Origin: a virus
Taxonomy: Duplodnaviria; Heunggongvirae; Uroviricota; Caudoviricetes
IMG/VR virus record: IMGVR_UViG_2703718820_000012
Location: 1-10,489 of that record
Strand: one strand, 5' to 3'
Length of the DNA stretch: 10,489 nt
Shown here: positions 1 through 10,489 of the stretch, piece after piece
Position numbering within the stretch: the first letter of the stretch is position 1
How the letters are laid out: every line of letters starts with the position of its first letter
Translations under genes and position numbers: made by a program
Notes under the pieces: model-generated
Seen by the model: the letters and a program-made list of their open reading frames with translations, nothing else
Database searches by the model: none
What the model was told of the DNA's origin: nothing

Positions 1-1
1 G

Positions 2-688
2 GACCAGGAAAAATGGAGCGGCGACGGTGCCGGACTCAAGGCCATCACCGGCGGCGATGCGGTGTCCGTGGACCCGAAATACCGGGATGCGTACTCCACG
101 CATATCCCGGCGGTAATTCTGGCCGTGAACAATAACCCGATGCGCTTCACCGACCGCAGCGGCGGCGTGTCACGCCGGCGGGTGATTATTCACTTCCCGG
201 AACAGATAGCCCCGCAGGAGCGCGACCCGCAGCTTAAGGACAAAATCACCCGCGAGCTGGCGGTCATCGTGCGTCACCTGATGCAGAAGTTCAGCGACCC
301 GATGCTCGCCCGGTCACTGCTTCAGTCCCAGCAGAACTCAGACGAGGCGCTGAACATCAAACGGGATGCCGACCCGACGTTTGATTTTATCGGCTATCTG
401 GAAACCCTGCCGCAGACCAGCGGCATGTATATGGGGAACGCCAGTATCATCCCGCGCAATTACCGTAAATACCTCTATCACGCCTATCTGGCCTACATGG
501 AGGCAAACGGCTACCGGAATGTACTCAGTCTGAAAATGTTCGGGCTGGGGCTGCCGGTGATGCTGAAGGAATACGGACTGAATTACGAGAAGCGCCATAC
601 CAAACAGGGGATACAGACCAACCTGACGCTGAAAGAGGAAAGCTACGGCGACTGGCTGCCAAAATGTGACGACCCTGCAACAGCCTGA
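2..688 (+). CDS. P4 alpha-like DNA primase/helicase, C-terminal portion (5' end lies upstream of the window)
   Basis: The listed ORF (62..688) starts at an internal GTG. The same frame is open from nt 2 with no stop in 2-61 (DQEKWSGDGAGLKAITGGDAVSVDPKYRD...). The sequence resembles the C-terminal region of phage/plasmid P4-family primases as I recall them. It is followed by an intrinsic terminator and by TGTTCACC iterons, the known binding motif of P4 alpha. Confidence 0.8.
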   Translation, partial: DQEKWSGDGAGLKAITGGDAVSVDPKYRDAYSTHIPAVILAVNNNPMRFTDRSGGVSRRRVIIHFPEQIAPQERDPQLKDKITRELAVIVRHLMQKFSDPMLARSLLQSQQNSDEALNIKRDADPTFDFIGYLETLPQTSGMYMGNASIIPRNYRKYLYHAYLAYMEANGYRNVLSLKMFGLGLPVMLKEYGLNYEKRHTKQGIQTNLTLKEESYGDWLPKCDDPATA

Positions 689-695
689 CCCACCT

Positions 696-720
696 GACCG
701 GCATCTGCCGGTCTTTTTTT
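696..720 (+). terminator. Rho-independent terminator of the primase gene
   Basis: Stem gaccggc (696-702) pairs with gccggtc (707-713), with loop atct, followed by a run of 7 T (714-720). It lies 8 nt after the TGA stop. Confidence 0.75.
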
Positions 721-738
721 ATCCCGACATCCCCCGAA

Positions 739-767
739 GGTGAACAATCCACTGTTCACTCTTCACT
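739..767. promoter_or_regulatory. Partial alpha-binding iteron cluster (TGTTCACC type)
   Basis: GGTGAACA at 739-746 is an exact reverse complement of TGTTCACC. TGTTCACT at 753-760 matches 7/8, and tcttcact at 760-767 matches 6/8. The arrangement is the same as at the start of each crr-like repeat further downstream. Confidence 0.55.
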
Positions 768-1149
768 GTATATCCCCCGTACCAATATGAATTTAGTGAC
801 AAGAAAACATAAGTTGAACAGGAAAACCCAAAGAACTTTTTATCCCCCTCCAGACATTACCTGTCGCATCCATATTGAGCAAAAAATCTCATAGATAGAG
901 TGGTATTATTAACGTTTATCGCTTATCTAAATAGTAAAAACAAAATGCGATTCTAATTTTATTCACAGGGTAAATAACTGAAATTATCTAAATAACTATA
1001 AACCCCTCATATATATAAATAAATTATACCACATAACCAAAATACGATATTCTGCTGAGATCATTAAATTTAAGCTTATTTCAATGGCTATTACTCTAAA
1101 GATTTGTTAATAACCAGTCGTCATGAAAATATACTTACAGTTATGTTTA

Positions 1150-1158
1150 TGCTATAAT
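1150..1158 (+). promoter_or_regulatory. Candidate extended -10 promoter element for the HAD gene
   Basis: tgcTATAAT has a TGn extension plus a perfect TATAAT at 1153-1158, 28 nt upstream of the ATG. No convincing -35 element is present. A strong Shine-Dalgarno GGGGAGG lies at 1175-1181. Confidence 0.35.
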
Positions 1159-1185
1159 CAGTGACAAATATTTTGGGGAGGAATT

Positions 1186-1872
1186 ATGAAAATTTGTTTT
1201 TTCGATATGGAGGGGACTTTACTTGAAAAGAACTCATATTTAGATAATGGAAAAGTTGCACCGAGCGCGTGGACAGTACTTGCCAAAGAAATCAGCGAAG
1301 CTTGTTTTATTGAAGAGGAAAAAACAAAAGATTTATGGCTAGCTAATAAATATATCAGCTATACACAATGGATGAAAGAAACTGTTGAAATACAAATCAA
1401 ACATGGAATGAACAAAAATCACCTACAAACGGTATTATCTCAAGCGAAGATACAAAAAGGTGCTGTGGAACTTATTCATTATTTGAAAAGTCAAGGATAC
1501 TTAACAGTATTGATATCTGGTGGGTTTAAAGAATTAGCAGACCTAACTCAAAAGAGCCTAAAAATAGATCATGCATATAGTGCTTGTGAATATTTTTTTA
1601 GGAAAGATGGTAGCATTGAGCACTTCAATCTATTACCAACAGATGAGGAAGGGAAACTGGTCTTCATGAAACACCTTGCCTCTGAATATAACGTAGAACT
1701 TGAAAATTGTATTTTTGTTGGCGATGGGAAGAATGATGTTTTTATCGCCAAAAATGTAGGTACTTCTATAGCCTTCAATGCTCAGAGAGAATTAAGAGAA
1801 GTATCTACATTTATTGTAGACCAAGAAACACCTGATTTATCAGCGATTATTGACCTTATTAGAACTATTTAA
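1186..1872 (+). CDS. HAD-superfamily hydrolase, subfamily IB (phosphoserine-phosphatase-like)
   Basis: A strong RBS (GGGGAGG) sits 4 nt upstream of the ATG. HAD motifs are visible: motif I FFDMEGTLL, motif II VLISGGF, and motif IV VGDGKNDVFIAKNVGTSIAFNA (GDGxND). The layout resembles SerB. The gene sits in AT-rich DNA. Confidence 0.8.
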   Translation: MKICFFDMEGTLLEKNSYLDNGKVAPSAWTVLAKEISEACFIEEEKTKDLWLANKYISYTQWMKETVEIQIKHGMNKNHLQTVLSQAKIQKGAVELIHYLKSQGYLTVLISGGFKELADLTQKSLKIDHAYSACEYFFRKDGSIEHFNLLPTDEEGKLVFMKHLASEYNVELENCIFVGDGKNDVFIAKNVGTSIAFNAQRELREVSTFIVDQETPDLSAIIDLIRTI

Positions 1873-2673
1873 TCGATTTTGGAAGTCAAGTTTATCTTTA
1901 ACTATTTCCAGTTGTTCCTCTAACTGTTTTATCTTTGATTCAGACTGTAATTTGTACTGATTAAATTCATTTAAGTCAAATTTCTCTGAGAAATAGTAAT
2001 CTCTCCCAAAAGAAATTAGCGAGAGGAATAACCCAACAACAGCGATCATCGTTCCTATTTTAGTTATCGATATAATTGATAATTTTTCAGTTAGCTCTTT
2101 GCTTATCTGCTCTTTTAGAACTACTGGTTCTAAAAAAGTTTTAGGAAAATTACTTATATCTGAAACACGGTAAGATCTATATTCATTATATTGTTCTATA
2201 ACATCATAAGAACTAGGCACAGCAGAAGCCGGTTGATAATTTGGATTTTTTTCTATTTCATGGAATACAACTCTAAAGAAAGATTTATCTTGCTCACTAT
2301 CAGTAACTGGAAGATATTCCTCTACAGCTGAGAAATTAATTAACAGTGTTGATATCGGACCGTTATATCCAGAATCGATAATACCAGTATTGAGTGCAAG
2401 AAACCCCTTTTGCGATAATCTATTTTTTAAAAATACATATGCAATAAAACCCTCTGGCACATGAAGTATTTCTTCTGATATTACAAAAGCCGAATCTTGC
2501 GGTTTAAGTAAAGTTCTTCCGAGAGATCTTACATGATTTTTTTCATCTTTAAAAAGAATTTCCCTAATAGAAAGATCCACACTTGATTTATTAGAATAAT
2601 CTTTTGTGATTTTTTTGTTATATCTATCACAAACAAACCCATATTCAATTGCTTTTTGAGCACTAATCTGCAT
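1840..2673 (-). CDS. dUTPase/dCTP-deaminase-fold protein with C-terminal transmembrane helix and coiled coil
   Basis: RBS aggtga lies upstream of the ATG at 2673. LKNRLSQKGFLALNTGIIDSGYNGPISTLLINFS aligns by eye with E. coli Dut ([35 protein letters not shown]) and Dcd ([33 protein letters not shown]). The hydrophobic stretch IGTMIAVVGLFLSLISFG spans aa 206-223 (nt 2005-2058). A heptad-like tail KLQSESKIKQLEEQLEIVKDKL follows. Confidence 0.75.
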   Translation of the reverse strand: MQISAQKAIEYGFVCDRYNKKITKDYSNKSSVDLSIREILFKDEKNHVRSLGRTLLKPQDSAFVISEEILHVPEGFIAYVFLKNRLSQKGFLALNTGIIDSGYNGPISTLLINFSAVEEYLPVTDSEQDKSFFRVVFHEIEKNPNYQPASAVPSSYDVIEQYNEYRSYRVSDISNFPKTFLEPVVLKEQISKELTEKLSIISITKIGTMIAVVGLFLSLISFGRDYYFSEKFDLNEFNQYKLQSESKIKQLEEQLEIVKDKLDFQNRLNSSNKVNNR

Positions 2674-2721
2674 ACTTCACCTAACTTAGCTTATTCTATC
2701 GAACAATAATTGAATCACATA

Positions 2722-2751
2722 GTTATAATGTAACTAGACGAATATATCCAA
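2722..2751 (-). promoter_or_regulatory. Candidate sigma70 promoter for the Dut/Dcd-like gene
   Basis: On the minus strand, TTGGAT (2746-2751) is followed by an 18-nt spacer and TATAAC (2722-2727), about 50 nt upstream of the ATG. This rests on a by-eye match to consensus only. Confidence 0.25.
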
Positions 2752-2892
2752 TGTTTTTGAATATATTATTGACGAAGCAAGTCAACTGATCAATACTGTG
2801 TATAAAAAAACAACATCTTCACCACATATAAAAAAAACATAAAATCATGGTACTACCTCAAAGTCCTGACTCCTGCTGAATTGCTTAATCAT

Positions 2893-2990
2893 AAGAAGCG
2901 CCATACAAAACAGGGAATAAAGAGCAACCTGACGCAAAAAGAGGAAAGCTACGGCCACTGGCTGCCAAAATGTTACGCTCCTGCAACAAC
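2893..2990 (+). pseudogene. Remnant of a second alpha-primase 3' end (copy B of the repeat)
   Basis: It encodes KKRHTKQGIKSNLTQKEESYGHWLPKCYAPATT, homologous to the last ~33 codons of the intact primase gene. There is no upstream coding body and the original stop is lost, so the frame reads on into the terminator and iterons. Confidence 0.75.
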
Positions 2991-2998
2991 CCTACCTA

Positions 2999-3022
2999 GA
3001 CCGTCCTCTGCCGGTCTTTTTT
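2999..3022 (+). terminator. Degenerate copy of the primase terminator
   Basis: gaccgtc (2999-3005) pairs with gccggtc (3010-3016) with one mismatch, followed by 6 T. It is homologous to the terminator at 696-720. Confidence 0.5.
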
Positions 3023-3039
3023 ATCCCGGCCCCCCAGAA

Positions 3040-3345
3040 GATGAACAATCCACTGTTCACCTTTCACCGTATATTCACCTGTTATCATACTGAAATTAAA
3101 AGAGAAAAATGAAAGGTGAACAGTGTGAACAATCAAATCAAAAAAACTCTTTTCTCCTTGTGTGATTTCAGTCCGGGGAATTAATCACCGGTATGAGTCA
3201 CACCGGCAGAATGCCGGAGGTGAAGAATCAAATGTTCACCCTTCACCCATTATTCACCACCTATCATACTGAAAGTAAAAGAGAAAACAGAAAGGTGAAC
3301 AGTGTGAACAGTTCTTTCGAAAAAAACTTTTTTCCTGTACGATAC
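3040..3345. promoter_or_regulatory. crr-like cis replication region: two ~125-bp direct repeats carrying TGTTCACC iterons
   Basis: Exact TGTTCACC occurs at 3054-3061 and 3233-3240. Exact GGTGAACA occurs at 3115-3122 and 3294-3301. 7/8 variants occur at 3040-3047, 3072-3079, 3124-3131, 3219-3226, 3251-3258 and 3303-3310. The units are about 3040-3165 and 3219-3345, with a 179-bp period. This matches the published description of P4 crr as two 120-bp repeats separated by 60 bp. Confidence 0.75.
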
Positions 3346-3618
3346 AGCATCAATCAAAGTAAAAATGAGCTTTCATTCCACATTAACTTACAGCCATTGG
3401 TATACAATTAGGTATACGCACAAAAGCTGAATTAAATAAAATAATTAAAAATCAAAGAAATAAAATACTTATTCAAACTCCGCCAGCCCAATCATGATTG
3501 GACGGTGTAAGGACAACACCAACAAAAACAGGAAGTTAGCAGTCTCAGCAGGACACCGACCAGACGGTGAGGAGACAAAAAAGGATACGCAAAGGAGCCG
3601 CGGCTCTCGAGTGACACA

Positions 3619-3649
3619 AAAGCCCGCTTATGCGGGCTTTTTGTTTTTC
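3619..3649 (+). terminator. Rho-independent terminator with no upstream protein-coding gene
   Basis: Stem aagcccgc (3620-3627) pairs with gcgggctt (3632-3639), with loop ttat, followed by tttgttttt. No ORF of 60 aa or more ends here. Confidence 0.65.
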
Positions 3650-3718
3650 CCTTAAGTTCCTAGCCGCTTATCTATAACTATGGAAAAATGTTAACCCTGA
3701 CTGTATGTTAACAAAGGG

Positions 3719-4933
3719 ATGTATATGTCGGTTTTTCATAACTGGCTGCTTGATATCGCAAGCGGGAATTACTTTATCTACATCAAACGCCTTTCTGCAA
3801 ACGACACAGGCGCAACAGGTGGCCATCAGGTCGGACTTTATATCCCCTCAAATATCGTTGAAAAGCTTTTTCCATCAATCAATCATACTCGCGAACTGAA
3901 CCCTTCAGTCTTCCTTACTGCGCATGTATCATCCCATGATTGCCCTGATACCCAAGCACGCGCAATTTATTACAACAACCGTTATTTTGGTAAGACCCGA
4001 AACGAAAAAAGAATTACGCGCTGGGGGAGAGGAAGTCCATTACAGAACCCTGAAAATACAGGAGCCCTCACAATTCTTGCTTTCAGGTTAAACGAACAGA
4101 ACACTGACTGTTCCGAGGTAGATATATGGGTCTGCGTCAATCCCGATGAAGAGGATATCATCGAGTCTGCTATTGGCGAAATCATACCTGGAACCCTAAT
4201 TTCCGGCCCTGCCGGACAAATTTTGGGCGGATTGTCTCTTCAGCAAACTCCAGTAAATCATAAATATGTTATTCCTGAAGACTGGAAGAAGCGTTTTCCT
4301 TCTGGAAACGAAATTATTCAATATGCTGCTGGCCATTATGCTAAAAACTCCAAGGATCCAGATGAGCAACTGATTGACCGTCGGCGTGTCGAGTATGATA
4401 TTTTTCTACTCGTCGAGGAATTACATGTTCTTGATATTATTAAGAAAGGATTCGATTCTGTAGATGAGTTTATTGCATTAGCCAACTCTGTCAGTAATCG
4501 ACGTAAATCAAGGGCAGGCAAATCACTTGAACTTCACCTAGAGAAGCTTTTTATCGAGCACGGACTACGGCATTTCTCCACTCAGGCAGTTACTGAAGGT
4601 AATAAAAAACCAGATTTCCTGTTTCCTTCAGCAGAGGCATATCATAACGTTGAATTTCCTGTAGAAAACTTACGTATGCTGGCAGTAAAGACCACCTGCA
4701 AAGATCGCTGGCGTCAGATACTGAATGAAGCAGATAAAATCCATCAGGTACATTTATTTACACTGCAAGAAGGTGTTTCTTCAGCACAATACCGAGAAAT
4801 GAAAGATGCGGGTGTCAGACTCGTTGTACCATCAACTTTACATAAAAAATACCCAGAAGCAGTTAGAGAAGAATTAATAACGCTCGGAGCATTCATTACT
4901 GAGCTGATAGAGCTTTACGCTGAACTATCATAG
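3719..4933 (+). CDS. ecoRIIR: Type IIE restriction endonuclease, EcoRII family (CCWGG)
   Basis: The 404-aa product is near-colinear with EcoRII as I recall it (SVFHNWLL...YIKRLSANDTGATGGHQVGLYIP...KKPDFLFPS...LAVKTTCKDRWRQILNEADK). Counting from the ATG at 3719, residues fall on the literature numbering: R88, E271, D299, Y308, K324, E337. An alternative ATG at 3725 has better SD spacing. Confidence 0.93.
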   Translation: MYMSVFHNWLLDIASGNYFIYIKRLSANDTGATGGHQVGLYIPSNIVEKLFPSINHTRELNPSVFLTAHVSSHDCPDTQARAIYYNNRYFGKTRNEKRITRWGRGSPLQNPENTGALTILAFRLNEQNTDCSEVDIWVCVNPDEEDIIESAIGEIIPGTLISGPAGQILGGLSLQQTPVNHKYVIPEDWKKRFPSGNEIIQYAAGHYAKNSKDPDEQLIDRRRVEYDIFLLVEELHVLDIIKKGFDSVDEFIALANSVSNRRKSRAGKSLELHLEKLFIEHGLRHFSTQAVTEGNKKPDFLFPSAEAYHNVEFPVENLRMLAVKTTCKDRWRQILNEADKIHQVHLFTLQEGVSSAQYREMKDAGVRLVVPSTLHKKYPEAVREELITLGAFITELIELYAELS

Positions 4934-4938
4934 GCTGA

Positions 4939-4961
4939 CTCCCGGCTTAAAAGGCCGGGAG
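4939..4961. terminator. Hairpin between the convergent R and M genes (possible bidirectional terminator)
   Basis: ctcccggc (4939-4946) pairs with gccgggag (4954-4961), with loop ttaaaag. It sits in the 34-nt gap between the two stop codons. Neither side has a clear T tract. Confidence 0.45.
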
Positions 4962-4967
4962 ATGTTC

Positions 4968-6401
4968 TCAAGGCTGCCCAGTCTTACCAGCATCAGCAGA
5001 AACAGCTTTGAGGATATAGGGTTCCAGAAGTCTGGCAACAGCTTCAAATACTGGCACCACAACTGAGTTACCGAACTGCCGATATGACTGAGTATCTGAA
5101 ACCGGAATACGGAATGGTTTCCCTCCAGGTTTTTCAAATCCCATAAGGCGTGCACACTCTCGGGGAGTCAGCCTGCGTGGTCGACGAGCCTGATTACTCT
5201 CATTCATAAAGTCAGCCTCTCCCGTTGCCATATCCCAACCACGATCAATAAGAATTTCTGATCCGTCTTTGTGATATCTGGCAGAAAGTGTGCGTGCAAT
5301 GCTTTCCTTATTCTCAGGATTGACCAACCCAAAGCCAAAACCATTCCCCTTGGCTGCATGCTTTTTGGCGTAGTTATAAAGGTACTCCCATAGTTTTGGC
5401 GTAAGTATATATTTACTGTCGACTACAGGCTCCAGCAATTCACCAAATGATGGGCGGTGTTCCGGATAAAAACGACTGATATCACGCAAGGTAAACCCCT
5501 TGTGAATATTCAGATCTCGTCTAAATCCGACCAGAACAATGCGTTCACGATGCTGAGGCAAAAAATGCTTCCCATCGATAATCTTTGGATCGTTTTTTCC
5601 CATTTCTGCAGCATCGGCAACTTCGTAGCCCAGCTCGTCAAGGGTCTCCATAATCACTTTGAAAGTTTTACCCTTATCATGGCTCTTCAGATTTTTGACA
5701 TTTTCCAGCACAAAAATTGCCGGTTTTTTTGCTCGTATAATACGTGCCACGTCAAAAAAAAGTGTTCCTTGTGCTTCACATTCAAAACCATGCGCACGAC
5801 CAAGTGAGTTTTTCTTACTAACACCAGCAAGGCTAAATGGCTGGCACGGGAACCCCGCAAGAAGCACATCATGATCCGGCACATGCTCATCAATATATGC
5901 ATAAGCATCCGTTTCCAATACATCGGTTTTATCACTCAGCGTGACTTCCCGAATATCGAGATTGAATTTATGCACCTGTTCATCGTTAAACCAGTTGGCT
6001 TTGTATGTACGCACAGCATCTTTATTCCATTCACTGGTAAAAACACACTGGCCTCCAATGGCCTCAAAACCTTTCCGTATCCCTCCAATTCCAGCAAATA
6101 AGTCAATGAAGCGGAAAGCATATTCCGGATGGTTTGCAGGTGGTTCTGGTAGCATCTTACGCAGAAGAGACTCTTCTACTGAAGTCAACGATTTTGGTAA
6201 ACACTTGCCATTAATCCAGCGGTTAATGGTTTCACGGCTCCACTCATTTTTTCCGACTTTTCTCAGTAATTCAGCCACATACTTCTGATCATAGATTTCC
6301 AGCACTTTCTCGATAAGCTTTTTATCATTTTCCTGTCGCAGCTTTTCTTCCGCCTCGGCTTCCTTCAGCAGATGCTGTGCCAACACTTCAAATTCAGACA
6401 T
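4968..6401 (-). CDS. ecoRIIM: DNA (cytosine-5) methyltransferase, M.EcoRII/Dcm family (CCWGG)
   Basis: The C5-MTase motifs are all present: [10 protein letters not shown] (I), GFPCQPFS (IV), FVLENVKNL (VI), QHRERIV (VIII), [11 protein letters not shown] (IX) and GNSVVVPV (X). The preferred start is the ATG at 6401 (MSEFEVLAQ...), preceded by GGAGG 5 nt upstream. This gives 477 aa and places the catalytic Cys at position 186, as in M.EcoRII. The ORF-track start at 6443 has no RBS. Confidence 0.93.
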
Positions 6402-6762
6402 AATTCCTCCAAGGGGTCTAATGGGTGAAACTTTATCACTCATTCAACCCAGAAGGAAATGTTTTATCTGGATATTTAAACAGTGACTACAACGTAATCT
6501 AGCACTGGTGATGCTTTGTTAGGCATAGAGAATCATTCTATATACGACTAATGACAGAAAAACAGCAGACAAGTAGTTTGTTCATAAATTAACGCATACT
6601 ATGTGTCTACGGTTTTCGAGACCGGTCCAATCATCAAACGAAACATAAAATTAGCTCACATTATGAGGAAAAGTATCTTTTTTGTACTATGTAAATTCAA
6701 AGGCTTAGCCTCATTTCTCCGATGGTTTTCTCAACACTACTGGTTGTGAGCCCTTGCAATGA

Positions 6763-7581
<819 letters not shown>

Positions 7582-7600
7582 GTCTTTAAGTGATAAGCAT

Positions 7601-7642
7601 AAACCGCAGCACGATCTTCTTCCATACGACGTGCTACGGTTT
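7601..7642. terminator. Long hairpin between the convergent GIY-YIG and invertase genes
   Basis: aaaccgcagcacg (7601-7613) pairs with cgtgctacggttt (7630-7642). The stem is 13 bp with one mismatch and the loop is 16 nt. It abuts the invertase stop codon. The T tracts are weak. Confidence 0.45.
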
Positions 7643-8196
7643 CATTTATCTCCGACCGGAAACTTCTTATACAGTGTCGATATACCAACATCATAGATGA
7701 TCGCCACCTTCTGGCGAGGAACGCCTGATGCAATTAATCGCCCGGCCTGCGCCCATTGTTCTGGTGTAAGTTTGGGACGACGTCCACCAATTCGTCCCTG
7801 TGCGCGAGCAGCTTCCAGTCCAGCTTTTGTTCGTTCAACAATCAGTTCTCGTTCCATTTCAGCCAGGGCACCCATCACATGAAAGAAAAAACGCCCCATC
7901 GGTGTGCTGGTATCAATAGCATCCGTCAGACTGCGAAAATTAACGCCACGTTCGCGCAACTCCTCAACCAGAATGACCAGATGCCGCATACTACGCCCCA
8001 GCCGATCCAGCTTCCAGACAACCAGAGTGTCACCTGCCGATAATGTCCTGAGCAGTTTTTTCAGTCCCGGCCTTTCGGACTTTGTACCGCTTATCTTGTC
8101 TTCAAAAATCAGCTCGCATCCTGCACAGTTCAGCGCATTACGTTGTAGATCTGTGTTCTGGTCATTTGTTGATACGCGTACATAGCCAATAAGCAT
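7642..8196 (-). CDS. pin: Serine-recombinase DNA invertase (Pin/Gin/Hin/Cin family)
   Basis: MLIGYVRVSTNDQNTDLQRNAL...VVWKLDRLGRS...MGRFFFHVMGALAEMERELIVERT...GRIGGRRPKL...IYDVGISTLYKK is the hallmark of this family. It includes the catalytic Ser in YVRVST and a C-terminal HTH. The true start is the ATG at 8196, giving 184 aa, the same length as e14 Pin. The ORF-track start at 8232 adds 12 unsupported residues. Confidence 0.93.
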   Translation of the reverse strand: MLIGYVRVSTNDQNTDLQRNALNCAGCELIFEDKISGTKSERPGLKKLLRTLSAGDTLVVWKLDRLGRSMRHLVILVEELRERGVNFRSLTDAIDTSTPMGRFFFHVMGALAEMERELIVERTKAGLEAARAQGRIGGRRPKLTPEQWAQAGRLIASGVPRQKVAIIYDVGISTLYKKFPVGDK

Positions 8197-8250
8197 GGTA
8201 GATCCCCCTGACAAAAGCAGGAATGATGCCATCTGCTCGTTATTTCTGCA

Positions 8251-8276
8251 TTTTCATAAACGTTGGTTTGGGAGAA
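8251..8276. promoter_or_regulatory. 26-bp invertase crossover site (pix/gix-like), invertase-proximal
   Basis: ttttcataaacg-tt-ggtttgggagaa is the reverse complement of TTCTCCCAAACC-AA-CGTTTATGAAAA. This matches the Din-family AAACC-NN-GGTTT core. It lies in inverted orientation to the site at 9782-9807 and shares its central AA/TT dinucleotide. Confidence 0.85.
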
Positions 8277-8630
8277 GCGGCAAAACGGAATGTAGGTAAC
8301 GGGCAAAACCAAATTCCGGATATGGCGGCGTTTGCCAGTTCACTTTCATCAACGGGTTTTCAAAAACTCCCTTCAGGTCTGATTATTCAGTGGGGTATTG
8401 TCAGTGGAGCATCAAACTATACGGTGACTTACCCGGTAACATTCCCAAATCGTTCACTTGCGCTGTTGGCTGTGCCACATACAACGTCGGTGGCTGGTAT
8501 ATCTGCAATGGGCATAGCGAACTGTTCTGATATCAGCAAATCACAGTTCTATATAATTGTTGGCGGTATATCTCAGGGAGAAATTGTCAAATATGAAAGG
8601 TCCTGTTTTTGGGTAGCAATCGGTGTATAG
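8265..8630 (+). CDS. Alternative tail-fibre C-terminal cassette (silent orientation, no start of its own)
   Basis: [23 protein letters not shown]... parallels [23 protein letters not shown]... of the expressed fibre, then diverges. After inversion it would be in frame with the constant part (9796-10489). The ORF-track portion 8223-8264 lies outside the segment and is spurious. Confidence 0.75.
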   Translation, partial: GLGEAAKRNVGNGQNQIPDMAAFASSLSSTGFQKLPSGLIIQWGIVSGASNYTVTYPVTFPNRSLALLAVPHTTSVAGISAMGIANCSDISKSQFYIIVGGISQGEIVKYERSCFWVAIGV

Positions 8631-8638
8631 GTATATCT

Positions 8639-9034
8639 ATGATTTATTTCTCAAAATCGACTAATGGTTTTTTCTTTGATGGTATAAACAGCGACATGCC
8701 TGCTGACATTGTTGAGATAAGTACAGACTTATACAATGAATTAATTGCCGGACAGCAGGAAGGGGGGAAATTAATCACGTCAGATGAAAATGGTTTACCG
8801 GTACTGAAATCTCCGGCGATTGATTATGTCGCACGTGCTGAAAATCAGCGAATGCAGTTACTTGCTCATGCCGATAATGTCACAGCTGACTGGCGGGTGG
8901 AATTAATGCTTGGTGATATCAGCAGTACAGATAAAGAAAAACTATCTGCCTGGATGGACTACAAAAAAGAAGTAAAAGCCGTCGACACTTCGACGGCTCC
9001 TGAGATTAGCTGGCCTGAGTTACCGGAGGTGTAG
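8639..9034 (+). CDS. tfa: Tail-fibre assembly protein (partner of the silent cassette)
   Basis: MIYFSKSTNGFFFDG...LYNELIAGQ...[30 protein letters not shown] follows the typical Tfa/U-family layout. It lies directly downstream of the fibre cassette. The start is placed at the ATG at 8639 rather than the ORF-track start at 8609. Confidence 0.8.
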   Translation: MIYFSKSTNGFFFDGINSDMPADIVEISTDLYNELIAGQQEGGKLITSDENGLPVLKSPAIDYVARAENQRMQLLAHADNVTADWRVELMLGDISSTDKEKLSAWMDYKKEVKAVDTSTAPEISWPELPEV

Positions 9035-9425
9035 GCCATTCAATATCTGGCGCACCGGAAGTATCGACCAGTTCCAGTGCGTCCAGGTAATCCAGCCACA
9101 AATTATATTGTGCCAGTTCCTCACCTTTCAGCCGGCCAATAGCCGCTTTACCAGGCCATTGTTTACTGTTCATATAATCGTTGGCCTGTTCAATAAGTAT
9201 ATTTTTCATTCCCTCCGCTTCAGCTATTTCCTGTTCATGTGTCTTCGCTGGATATTCAGTAAGTACAGGGTAGTTATCCGGGCTATTGATAATAATTTTC
9301 CCCGTACTCTGACCATTCATAAGTTCATAATAAAGAGCATCTTCAATATCGAAAGCATCATCGGGAATATCGCTGTTGTTTTCAGAGAAAAATCCCTGAA
9401 CAGATGGGGACCATTTCATTTTCAT
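9006..9425 (-). CDS. tfa: Tail-fibre assembly protein (partner of the expressed fibre)
   Basis: [15 protein letters not shown]...LYYELMNGQ...[28 protein letters not shown] is a paralogue of the 8639-9034 product. Its start overlaps the fibre stop (ATGA overlap at 9422-9425). Confidence 0.8.
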
Positions 9426-10489
9426 AATTTCCCAATTCCTAAAATATGGACATCATCAGCCTTACGGGCATTCCAGGTGACAATTACATCGGTAGAGTGA
9501 CGATTAACTGAGATTGCGTATGCTTCGTTAGTCGAGCCAGAAACTTTTGTGGCAAACACAGCAAACAGGACACCAAATGACTGGGGCCATTTATAGCCTG
9601 ACAGCTGATAATTACCATTATCCAGTGTTACAGCTTTGACTGCTGCACTTGATGGAATCGTCAGCCACTGGAGTATCAACCCTCCTGGCAAAAGTTGTTT
9701 TCCATAAAAATCCCTCACACCACTAAATGAAACCATATCCGGTATCTGATTTTCCCCTGTTCCCACGTCCCGTTTTGCCGCTTCTCCCAAACCAAGGTTT
9801 TCGAGAGCCGTTTGCACAGTGCCATCCGATTTGATATCGCCAAACGGATTCTTGCGGCTTAACAGCAGCGCACGAAGTGCGGTAAGCATCTGGTCATGCC
9901 GCCCTTTCTCCAGGCTGGCACCGGAGGCCTCCACCACGCTACAAAGTTCTTCCTGCAACATGTCAAAGTAGTCATCATCCAGATCGGTGGCAGGTGTGCC
10001 GGTCTGGGGGTTACCACGGGTATCCGGTTTGTCGGTGTTACTGCCCTGACCGTTCTCTCTGTGACGATGCCCGTTATAGGCAAGCCGCATCGCTGACATG
10101 GTGGTGCCGCCGGAGTCGCACAGGTCTTTCACCTGTCCGGTCACTTCCAGGTCCATTTCAAAACGTGCTTCAGGTGCATTGCGAAACGTGATCGTTTTAC
10201 CTGCACCGTCCACCACGATCCCCTCCCGGGTCAGCGTCACGGACTGCCCCTGATCGTCATAGACAGCCACCTCGCCCGTCTGCAGCCCTTTCAGGCGGTA
10301 GCGACGGTCCGACACCGTAACAACCACCGCATGAGAACGGTCGCCATCCGGAAACAACACCACCGCTTCCGCACCGCTGTTTGCCCTTGCGGTAAAACCG
10401 TAGGGTTCAAGATGTTCAACCCCGGCTTTGGGTTCACCGGCAATCAGGGACACATCCACGGTCTGTAGTGGCACACTAAATTTGGCCAC
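9422..10489 (-). CDS. Tail protein: Mu Gp45-like baseplate domain fused to an invertible tail-fibre C-terminus (5' end probably beyond the window)
   Basis: The N-terminal part [55 protein letters not shown]...YNGHRHRE resembles the Mu Gp45 / baseplate assembly V family. The C-terminal part [37 protein letters not shown]...[13 protein letters not shown] is tail-fibre-like and crosses the inversion site at 9794/9795. The frame is open to the window edge. Confidence 0.75.
9782..9807. promoter_or_regulatory. 26-bp invertase crossover site (pix/gix-like), within the fibre gene
   Basis: TTCTCCCAAACC-AA-GGTTTTCGAGAG is a near-palindromic Din-family site. It is inverted relative to 8251-8276 and sits at the constant/variable junction of the fibre ORF (codons LENLGLGE). 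Confidence 0.85.

Follow-up and report, generated by a model that had tools for sequence, protein, structure and literature searches.

What does an AT-rich cassette of two genes do at the end of a primase gene in a P4-like phage satellite? We addressed this question for a 10,489-nucleotide (nt) stretch of viral DNA (Caudoviricetes; IMG/VR record IMGVR_UViG_2703718820_000012, positions 1 to 10,489), referred to below as the window. The cassette encodes a phosphatase-like protein of the HAD superfamily and, convergent with it, a protein of 277 amino acids (aa) in which a dUTPase/Dcd-fold domain is joined to a transmembrane (TM) helix and a coiled coil, which we call Dut-TM. The two genes form a tightly co-inherited mobile module, of which we found no description in the literature searched. 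The pair falls into none of the defense families tested, and on sequence grounds it is a well-founded candidate defense module that looks like an undescribed system for anti-phage activity or nucleotide policing.

An AT-rich cassette between two copies of a primase 3' end

An initial annotation of the window had described an AT-rich block of approximately 2.1 kb, holding only two genes, between diverged copies of a primase 3' end. This picture stood, with slight correction of the coordinates. The block spans positions 779 to 2883 and has a GC content of 0.313, compared to 0.580 for the primase end (1 to 688) and 0.428 for the whole window. By repeat search and pairwise alignment, the two primase 3'-end copies that bracket it are approximately 85% identical. 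The block and its borders contain the following features.

62-688, plus strand: 3' part (last 208 codons) of the P4-like satellite primase/helicase gene (alpha), with a Pfam Pox_D5 C-terminal domain (4e-17)
578-778, plus strand: left copy of the bracketing direct repeat (repeat families, terminator scan, and pairwise alignment), containing the primase 3' end, a terminator hairpin (696-719), and an iteron-like block (731-778)
779-1185, plus strand: AT-rich (29% GC) region 5' of the HAD gene, with a promoter-like site at 1107-1135
1186-1872, plus strand: HAD gene, 228 aa (from the list of open reading frames, ORFs)
1840-1872: convergent 3'-end overlap of the HAD and Dut-TM genes, 33 bp
1840-2673, minus strand: Dut-TM gene, 277 aa (ORF list)
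2674-2883, minus strand: AT-rich (30% GC) region 5' of the Dut-TM gene, with a promoter-like site at 2793-2765
2884-3079, plus strand: right copy of the bracketing repeat (same three lines of evidence), containing a primase 3' remnant (a pseudogene in RefSeq), a terminator copy (2999-3022), and an iteron-like block (3032-3079)

The ATG of the HAD gene at 1186 is preceded by a strong Shine-Dalgarno sequence (GGGGAGGA), and that of the Dut-TM gene is AGGTGA. The promoter-like sites are matches at the level of the consensus, and their coordinates are only suggestions because the scan returned 8 sites against 10.8 expected in shuffled sequences, with no enrichment. There is no independent third ORF of at least 50 aa in the block; the sole other one (1569-1778, minus strand, 69 aa) lies wholly antisense within the HAD gene. 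Likewise, an Rfam scan of positions 600 to 3800 gave no evidence of an RNA antitoxin in the cassette, the only matches being sub-threshold ones at 3549-3689, outside of it.

The iteron-like segment appears a third time at 3211-3258. The three blocks are diverged copies with TGTTCAC(C/T)-type motifs, and a longer stretch is repeated as well (3039-3153 versus 3218-3332). We take these blocks to resemble the iterons in P4 ori and crr to which the alpha protein binds. If they are P4 crr-type iterons, then the insertion that brought in the cassette took place between alpha and crr and duplicated the junction.

A HAD-IB phosphatase with its own cap segment

The 228-aa protein is solidly predicted to be a soluble HAD-IB phosphatase with a SerB-like fold, in line with the initial annotation. 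It matched the Pfam family Hydrolase (3.9e-15) and exceeded the cutoff of the HAD-SF-IB model (TIGR01488; 60.1 bits versus 45). In its AlphaFold2 (AF2) model (pLDDT, 93.3), a helical cap separates motifs I and II, and Foldseek aligned the model to single-domain phosphoserine phosphatases with target-TM scores of 0.82 to 0.88. The next distinct enzyme family was cytosolic pyrimidine 5'-nucleotidase III (cN-III; query-TM, 0.67 to 0.68). With SerB-type phosphoserine phosphatases and cN-III, the protein shares a Rossmannoid core, a helical (C1) cap, and canonical motifs II to IV. In an alignment of 30 homologs, the catalytic set (D7, E9, T11, S/T111, K157, D180, and D184) was invariant or conservatively kept, with motif I reading D7-M-E9-G-T11 and motif IV reading G179-D180-G181-K-N183-D184.

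The protein differs from these enzymes in several ways. The D+2 residue (E9) is Glu, not Asp, which is the sole departure from the four HAD motifs. It also has an unusual cap segment of its own (DNGKVAPSAWT, D20 to T30) that was invariant in the 30 homologs, and it is encoded by mobile elements rather than serving in serine biosynthesis. Assignment as a SerB equivalog was excluded (TIGR00338, 85.8 versus a cutoff of 144.15; NF008350, 50.6 versus 413). At other loci, the partner HAD proteins gave weak or faint matches to the Pfam pyrimidine 5'-nucleotidase family UMPH-1.

A membrane-anchored protein with a dUTPase-type domain

Databases label the 277-aa protein as "hypothetical" or "dCTP deaminase domain-containing." It comprises four regions.

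2254-2673, minus strand: aa 1-140, dUTPase/Dcd-fold beta-barrel domain (Pfam, AF2, Foldseek, and profiles)
2074-2253, minus strand: aa 141-200, variable linker and then conserved helices (family alignment and AF2)
2002-2073, minus strand: aa 201-224, one predicted TM helix (hydropathy)
1840-2001, minus strand: aa 225-277 and stop codon, coiled-coil tail (AF2 helix at aa 234-272; heptad register)

The N-terminal domain (pLDDT of approximately 90) is, to judge from sequence profiles and the structural model, a nucleotide-binding and probably hydrolyzing domain of the dUTPase type. As a single sequence it scored just below the Pfam thresholds (DCD, 25.0 versus 27; dUTPase, 21.5 versus 22) and below the curated cutoffs of TIGR00576 (Dut; 26.6 versus 102.55) and TIGR02274 (Dcd; 29.2 versus 92.8). 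Foldseek matched it to Dcd-dUTPases and dUTPases with a probability of 1.0 (target-TM, 0.54 to 0.71), and the family profile matched dUTPases in the PDB (7.7e-7), the nearest solved relatives by sequence being trimeric dUTPases. Like trimeric dUTPases and Dcd, the domain has a beta-barrel fold, the motif I Asp, and a motif III (G-I-I-D-x-G-Y-x-G) with the catalytic Asp, the sugar-stacking Tyr, and the following Asn. Little or no variation was seen at S31 and D33 (motif I), K83 and N84 (motif II position), D100 and Y103 (motif III), N113, and R134. In an hhalign comparison with Escherichia coli Dut, D33 aligned with D32, N84 with S72, D100 with D90, Y103 with Y93, and N113 with N103; the reference sequences of E. 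coli Dut and Dcd were checked against PDB entries 1dud and 1xs1. The residues that had been proposed as mutation targets, D7 of the HAD protein and D100 of Dut-TM, are both invariant catalytic positions.

The earlier reading of this domain as Dut/Dcd thus held for the fold, which Foldseek and the family profile recovered, but not for dCTP deaminase activity. In an hhalign comparison of the family profile with E. coli Dcd, the catalytic E138 fell opposite Leu110, a column occupied by L, V, I, or S in all 30 family members and never by an acidic residue. Dut-TM is therefore no deaminase. The defensive "dCTP deaminases" of Tal et al. (2022) are, for their part, reportedly of the cytidine-deaminase fold, which is unrelated to the Dut/Dcd fold. 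Dut-TM also departs from trimeric dUTPases and Dcd in its additions. In place of the C-terminal arm that carries motif V (RGxxGFGS(T/S)G), it has the linker, TM helix, and coiled coil. Motif II reads K-N-R rather than R-S-S, and the alignment of motif IV is ambiguous. The linker helices contain a conserved motif (Y162/Y165...P177-x-x-F180-L181) and may stand in for the missing motif V arm.

The TM helix and coiled coil noted in the initial annotation were both borne out. Hydropathy (KD19) peaked at 1.96, centered at approximately aa 207 to 215, with maxima of 1.53 to 2.69 across 30 family members, nearly all of which have the hydrophobic segment. In the tail, 54% of heptad a/d positions are hydrophobic versus 16% elsewhere. 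The Dut-like domain probably faces the cytoplasm and the coiled-coil tail the outside, since a signal peptide is lacking and the N-terminal side of the TM helix shows a weak positive-inside bias. Sequence identity within the family is highest in the catalytic core (0.56) and lowest in the coiled coil and tail (0.20 to 0.30).

The explanation that we favor, tentatively and at somewhat less than even probability, is that the cassette is a two-step module that degrades pyrimidine deoxynucleotides in conflicts with phages. Dut-TM would be a membrane-tethered, probably trimeric pyrophosphatase of the dUTPase fold, with its catalytic domain in the cytoplasm and its coiled coil outside, that converts a pyrimidine deoxynucleoside triphosphate (dNTP) to the monophosphate (dNMP) and pyrophosphate. 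The HAD protein would then convert the dNMP to nucleoside and phosphate, making the loss of the nucleotide irreversible. The substrate would carry uracil, thymine, or a C5-modified pyrimidine (dUTP or dTTP, 5-methyl-dCTP [5m-dCTP], or hydroxymethyl-dCTP and -dUTP [hm-dCTP and hm-dUTP]) in preference to bulk dCTP. Satellites, prophages, and restriction-modification (R-M) islands of the 5-methylcytosine type would deploy the pair against incoming phages.

The two genes are inherited together

We assembled 71 loci, drawing on complete genomes of E. coli, species genomes in GTDB, IMG/VR, metagenomes, and searches for the exact proteins. The initial annotation had proposed the linkage of the two genes as a check on its claim. 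A HAD homolog (52 to 99% identity) adjoined every full-length Dut-TM gene (at least approximately 33% identity, with at least 900 bp downstream), which is far above the chance expectation. The sole exception among informative loci of the core family was in Alteromonas confluentis (L006:8862-10130), where a transposase gene of a Mutator-family insertion sequence (IS) occupies the position of the HAD gene, beside a 285-aa Dut-TM ORF that appears to be intact. All pairs were convergent except one, which was divergent (L064). The gap between the genes ranged from -26 to +532 nt (tblastn-match coordinates, stop codons omitted), so the 3' overlap is not a conserved feature, and we rejected the idea that it serves as an antisense regulatory device.

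The HAD protein was always the better conserved of the two, with a mean pairwise identity of 0.60 versus 0.41 for Dut-TM. In E. coli E1 (L002:12719-13557) and FXCREC043 (annotated at 142 aa), the Dut-TM gene is frameshifted beside an intact HAD gene. In another complete genome, it is present as fragments of 84 and 126 aa, again adjacent to an intact HAD gene. The broken copies may reflect a fitness cost of the membrane protein.

Such a cost would be expected if the pair worked as an abortive-infection or toxin-antitoxin-like system, an alternative that we consider rather unlikely. According to this explanation, the Dut domain would sense a pyrimidine nucleotide made or perturbed by the phage and relay the signal through the conserved linker helices, the TM helix and coiled coil would damage the membrane, and the HAD protein would destroy the ligand or act as antidote. 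Besides the frameshifted and truncated Dut-TM genes and the stronger conservation of the HAD protein, it would account for the missing motif V, and separate promoters in convergent orientation would permit independent dosage of the two proteins. It fits less well with a single TM helix per chain, nor is an open Dut-TM reading frame with a transposase in place of the HAD gene, as in A. confluentis, expected if the HAD protein were an essential antidote.

Mobile-element cargo slots and defense islands

The pair occurs in Enterobacterales, Vibrio, Idiomarina, and marine metagenomes, and four of the contigs that carry it are from IMG/VR. Its contexts were consistently cargo slots of mobile elements and R-M or defense islands, not housekeeping loci, as the initial annotation had anticipated. 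In every host, the GC content of the pair was 31 to 40%, usually 9 to 17 points below that of its flanks.

The element that hosts the cassette has int, psu, delta, sid-like, AlpA/Icd-like, and alpha primase genes and is thus a P4-like satellite. In BEN2908 and DETEC-P793, which carry identical DNA, a 777-aa primase is encoded in an int-psu-delta-...-alpha satellite at ssrA. A cassette of 86% identity lies in a second E. coli P4-like element, at tRNA-Sec, and P4-like satellites of Klebsiella, Citrobacter, and Enterobacter also contain the pair, always just downstream of the primase gene. The initial annotation was correct about the type of element. The slot is outside the canonical psu-int hotspot, with the primase gene on one side of it and the crr-like iterons on the other. 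Among 5,426 complete E. coli genomes, the identical cassette was found in 3 and the 86%-identical cassette in 2. A further search result concerns the slot itself. Nearly all of the 845 E. coli genomes that matched part of the query did so only over its first 96 nt, the terminator/iteron junction, indicating that the slot is normally empty.

Some of these satellites contain other genes of interest. One has a gene for a 506-aa dCMP_cyt_deam_1/MafB19 deaminase, a protein of the defensive cytidine-deaminase type, next to psu in the psu-int hotspot (L034:1-41), and may therefore carry two different nucleotide-directed modules; at the same psu-int position, two others have a 458-aa ORF (L033 and L036). 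In Citrobacter and Enterobacter satellites (L033 to L038, approximately 8785-10037), the genes that come after the cassette encode a DUF6680 protein, a HicB-like protein, and the type I toxin SymE, and beyond them lie RhuM and the type VI secretion genes Hcp/Tlde1.

Outside P4-like satellites, the pair was found in a small int-AlpA-Rep island of E. coli and, in Morganella, at an icd locus next to an integrase fragment. In Vibrio cholerae and Vibrio alginolyticus, it occupies the cI-int cargo position of P2-like prophages, with an LlaJI R-M system adjoining. In two of these loci (L018:9335-10930 and L024:7372-8969), the HAD gene abuts an LlaJI-type C5-cytosine DNA methyltransferase (C5-MTase) gene or follows it by no more than 3 nt. 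In phage K139, the exclusion gene glo occupies this cargo position. The Dut-TM gene of the Vibrio prophages starts 2 to 13 nt past the cI stop codon, a spacing at which it is probably cotranscribed, and presumably expressed, in lysogens. In Idiomarina, the pair is part of an island with GmrSD, two C5-MTases, an NgoMIV R-M system, BrxR, and TniQ.

These contexts speak to the very improbable alternative that the pair is a nondefensive moron or a counterdefense, aiding satellite or prophage replication through dUTPase-type nucleotide hygiene or degrading nucleotide signals of host immunity. Phage genomes often carry dUTPase genes that serve the replication of the phage itself, the best matches of Dut-TM in the phage database were staphylococcal phage dUTPases, and the cassette adjoins satellite replication genes (alpha and the crr-like iterons). 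Yet the pair itself was not found in 50,697 deposited phage genomes, in which the only matches were soluble dUTPases of approximately 30% identity. The pair also occurs in nonphage islands with GmrSD, BrxR, and R-M genes, its placement after cI points to a role in the lysogenic state and not to expression in lytic replication, and a slot that is empty in most P4-like satellites means that the pair is dispensable for their replication.

Association with C5-cytosine methyltransferases

Across 31 loci, C5-MTases accounted for 14 of the 114 ORFs that flank the pair, whereas no N6-adenine methyltransferase family was among the top neighbor families. In most nonenterobacterial loci and in Rahnella (L003), the HAD gene is directly preceded by a C5-MTase gene of the same orientation. 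Direct neighbors of this kind were found at L003, L004, L010, L011, L018-20, L024-26, L043, L052/53, L056, L058/59, and L063, and at L009/L027/28 and L060/62 a restriction endonuclease (REase) gene lies between the two. The distance from the C5-MTase to the HAD gene was 15 to 376 nt, or 895 to 1044 nt with an intervening REase gene. The C5-MTases belong to at least three types and come with at least five partner genes (LlaJI-type, NgoMIV, MvaI/BcnI, GHKL-ATPase, and ABC-ATPase). A distant relative in Sinorhizobium meliloti adjoins genes for a Vsr-domain protein and a C5-MTase.

One interpretation of this association, improbable in our view, is that the pair is an accessory of 5-methylcytosine R-M systems and not a defense in its own right. 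It would destroy salvaged 5-methyl-dCTP and 5-methyl-dCMP, or their deaminated products, keep C5-methylated bases from random reincorporation into the DNA of host or phage, and thereby preserve the mark that separates self from nonself. The position of the C5-MTase immediately upstream of the HAD gene at many loci, the lack of N6-adenine methyltransferases among the top neighbors, and the S. meliloti relative are all consistent with such sanitation, which is established for epigenetic nucleotides in eukaryotes (DCTPP1). Against it, the pairs of Enterobacterales reside on satellites and small islands without an adjacent methyltransferase, the share of 5-methylcytosine in nucleotide pools should be very small, and the membrane anchor would have no reason. 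Moreover, R-M systems are the commonest neighbors of any defense gene, so the association may be partly generic.

Distant relatives in thymidylate-synthase operons

With a threshold of E <= 1e-10, an exhaustive profile search recovered 626 cluster representatives. Among the 150 that were listed, most are 250 to 290 aa long and match both the Dut-like domain and the region of linker, TM helix, and coiled coil, which indicates that the membrane anchor is ancestral to a large superfamily. In a 39-member sample of this superfamily (27% mean column identity), D100, N113, R134, and F180 were invariant and K83 nearly so. With the motif III Asp and these other positions kept, the active site appears to be preserved.

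The distant members lack the HAD gene. In five of six distant loci (L012 and L067-L070) and on the P0344 contig, a thymidylate-synthase homolog lies downstream of the Dut-like gene, in the same direction and overlapping it, and in three of those loci a 5-hydroxymethyldeoxyuridine (5-hmdU) DNA kinase gene is next (PF18723, approximately 1e-105). The apparent operons are located as follows.

L012:7920-10830
L069:1609-4458
L070:4812-7661
L067:4863-6526
L068:4995-6618

We found no description in the literature of an operon that combines thymidylate synthase with a Dut-TM relative. It may be a chromosomal module for defense or for a process like thymidine hypermodification, with a membrane-anchored dUTPase-like component. 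In phage thymidine hypermodification, dTTP is depleted by a dTTPase/dUTPase that also provides the hydroxymethylase with dUMP (PMC13458397). One such enzyme is gp18 of phage SH-Ab 15599, which acts with a dUMP hydroxymethylase and 5-HMUDK. The arrangement is similar to that of the distant Dut-TM relatives, upstream of thymidylate-synthase homologs and a 5-hmdU DNA kinase, but the catalytic domain of gp18 was modeled on dimeric dUTPase homologs, whereas Dut-TM has the beta-barrel fold of the trimeric enzymes. In the clade of the window, furthermore, the HAD protein takes the place of the synthase and kinase. Between the C5-MTases of one group and the thymidylate synthases and 5-hmdU kinases of the other, the partners link the superfamily to the C5 position of pyrimidines.

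The distant relatives also inform two of the alternatives above. Their phage-like hypermodification operons would suit a nondefensive role. For abortive infection, they are a difficulty: a suicide effector makes little sense in a thymidylate-synthase/5-hmdU-kinase operon, and since the TM helix and coiled coil are ancestral to the wider superfamily, the idea that they form a dedicated abortive-infection effector is weakened. Invariance of the catalytic Asp, Tyr, and Arg across the superfamily likewise favors catalysis.

Comparison to known defense systems

The initial annotation had expected that no existing defense model would recognize the pair, and this was the case: in PADLOC v2.0.0, Dut-TM matched no model, and the HAD protein gave just a weak partial match to the candidate model PDC-S34 (2.8e-4, aa 166 to 201). 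Among the phage families of PHROGs and the viral structures of BFVD, none had the full Dut-TM architecture. The accessions and architecture of the pair were also not found in the literature and supplement text searched, although an earlier purely computational mention is possible.

The initial annotation had, however, missed a close analog. Rousset et al. (2022) validated a "HAD-like hydrolase + transmembrane protein" system (Hydrolase + 3TM) that is carried as cargo by P4-like satellites and blocks T7. It is named Hydrolase/Hydrolase-TM in PADLOC (PDLC03008/03009) and Rst_Hydrolase-Tm in DefenseFinder, and its reference proteins are those of plasmid pFR97 from E. coli 2862600 (Rousset et al. 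2022, Table S2A). Both systems are P4-like satellite cargo made up of two genes, for a HAD-superfamily phosphatase and a small membrane protein. They are otherwise different. The pFR97 proteins matched PDLC03008 (6e-198) and PDLC03009 (6e-140), while the window proteins had no match at E <= 0.1. BLASTP aligned the two HAD proteins over only 26 residues, the GDxxxD motif (E = 0.024), and the membrane partners not at all. The pFR97 HAD is a HAD_2 protein of IA type with 288 aa, compared to the 228-aa HAD-IB protein of the window, and its partner has three TM helices and no Dut domain. Finally, pFR97 derives from the psu-int hotspot, whereas the window cassette is inserted after alpha and before the crr-like iterons. 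Based on the negative BLASTP and PADLOC results, we rejected identity with the Rousset system; the two are analogous in design and not homologous by sequence. The analogy nonetheless favors abortive infection, in that abortive infection through the membrane protein was the mechanism proposed for this closest validated analog.

The logic that we propose for the pair, starvation of phages through removal of deoxynucleotides, is also that of the dCTP deaminases and dGTPases described by Tal et al. (2022) and of AvcID. P4 hotspots themselves hold genes for nucleotide depletion, such as the cytidine deaminase of pFR98 (Rousset et al. 2022, Table S2). The Tal and AvcID enzymes are soluble single proteins with a cytidine-deaminase or HD fold, and their PADLOC models missed the window proteins. 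The pair would instead combine pyrophosphohydrolysis with dephosphorylation, using two proteins, one of them membrane bound.

HAD phosphatases and dUTPase domains also recur among the E. coli defense candidates of DefensePredictor (DeWeirdt et al. 2026). Its validated system DS-9 consists of a metallophosphatase and a HAD-IA protein that is a homolog of the Rousset HAD, and a predicted system is listed as "MazG-C kinase + dUTPase + aGPT-Pplase." Its authors describe the role of the HAD in defense as unknown and note that no dUTPase domain has been validated as defensive. The partners and architectures of these systems differ from those of the window pair. We rejected DS-9, the thymidylate-synthase system DS-4, and the predicted dUTPase system as matches, given that they have other components and that the window accessions were absent from the parts of the supplement searched.

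Weighing pyrimidine degradation as a possible function

For the degradation of pyrimidine deoxynucleotides speak the two folds, the conserved catalytic residues, the lack of the deaminase Glu, the gene linkage, the mobile and defense-associated contexts with their C5-MTase synteny, and the partners of the distant relatives. From these observed features, the enzymatic activity, substrate, trimeric state, membrane topology, and antiviral role are inferred. Several points count against this function of the pair. Motif V is missing, although canonical trimeric dUTPases require it for full catalysis, and with the variant K-N-R motif II, this means that the domain could bind a nucleotide without hydrolyzing it. 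The membrane anchor and extracytoplasmic coiled coil have no obvious role in depletion of a nucleotide pool. Glu at the D+2 position of the HAD protein and phosphoserine phosphatases as its nearest relatives make a nucleotide substrate uncertain. Convergent genes are unusual for a two-step metabolic pathway. Lastly, the repeated loss of an intact Dut-TM beside an intact HAD gene is better explained by a toxin-like cost.

Within the same enzymatic framework, we also considered the narrower proposal that the pair is the first immune module directed against modified nucleotide precursors, selectively destroying C5-modified pyrimidine dNTPs (hm-dCTP, 5m-dCTP, and hm-dUTP). It would close the route by which phages with fully C5-substituted DNA evade R-M systems whose self-mark is 5-methylcytosine. 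Such a role would explain both the attachment of the pair to many different C5-MTase operons, at their 3' ends, and the presence of its distant relatives in thymidylate-synthase/5-hmdU-kinase operons. Even so, we regard it as quite improbable.

Other genes in the window

Downstream of the cassette, the window contains further defense and prophage genes.

3719-6443: complete EcoRII-type R-M system
3719-4933, plus strand: EcoRII REase (EcoRII-N and EcoRII-C domains; PADLOC REase_II, 1.9e-234)
4968-6443, minus strand: Dcm-type C5-MTase
6808-7581: full-length PD-T4-3 defense protein, LEM-3-like GIY-YIG (PADLOC, 1.1e-139)
7642-8232, minus strand: Gin/Pin-type serine invertase

Inclusion of the EcoRII system in one unit with the satellite and cassette was rejected, as core genes come after this satellite and cassette in DETEC-P793 and another island does so in BEN2908. 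A GIY-YIG gene with a similar annotation is present in BEN2908, where it is oriented the other way. Alternative segments for tail fibers and tail-fiber assembly flank the invertase gene on both strands, and positions 7642 to 10489 look like the invertible host-range switch of a Mu/P2-like cryptic prophage. The sub-threshold Rfam cluster at 3549-3689, just 5' of the EcoRII gene, comprised STnc350 (27.1 bits versus a gathering score of 60), RsmY, isrK, and Thr leader, and is probably due to chance or a terminator-like structure.

Implications

The location of the cassette, with alpha on one side and the crr-like iterons on the other, is a second cargo position in P4-like satellites. If the pair protects its hosts, it would add the dUTPase/Dcd beta-barrel fold to nucleotide-directed immunity, together with membrane-bound dNTP pyrophosphohydrolysis coupled to dNMP dephosphorylation. 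It would also represent a second, unrelated example of the "HAD phosphatase + membrane protein" design validated in P4 satellites, and comparison of the two would make that design tractable. The synteny with C5-MTases on the one hand and with thymidylate synthases and 5-hmdU kinases on the other offers a testable lead on the policing of C5-modified pyrimidine nucleotides, and thus bears on how bacteria counter phages with hypermodified DNA.

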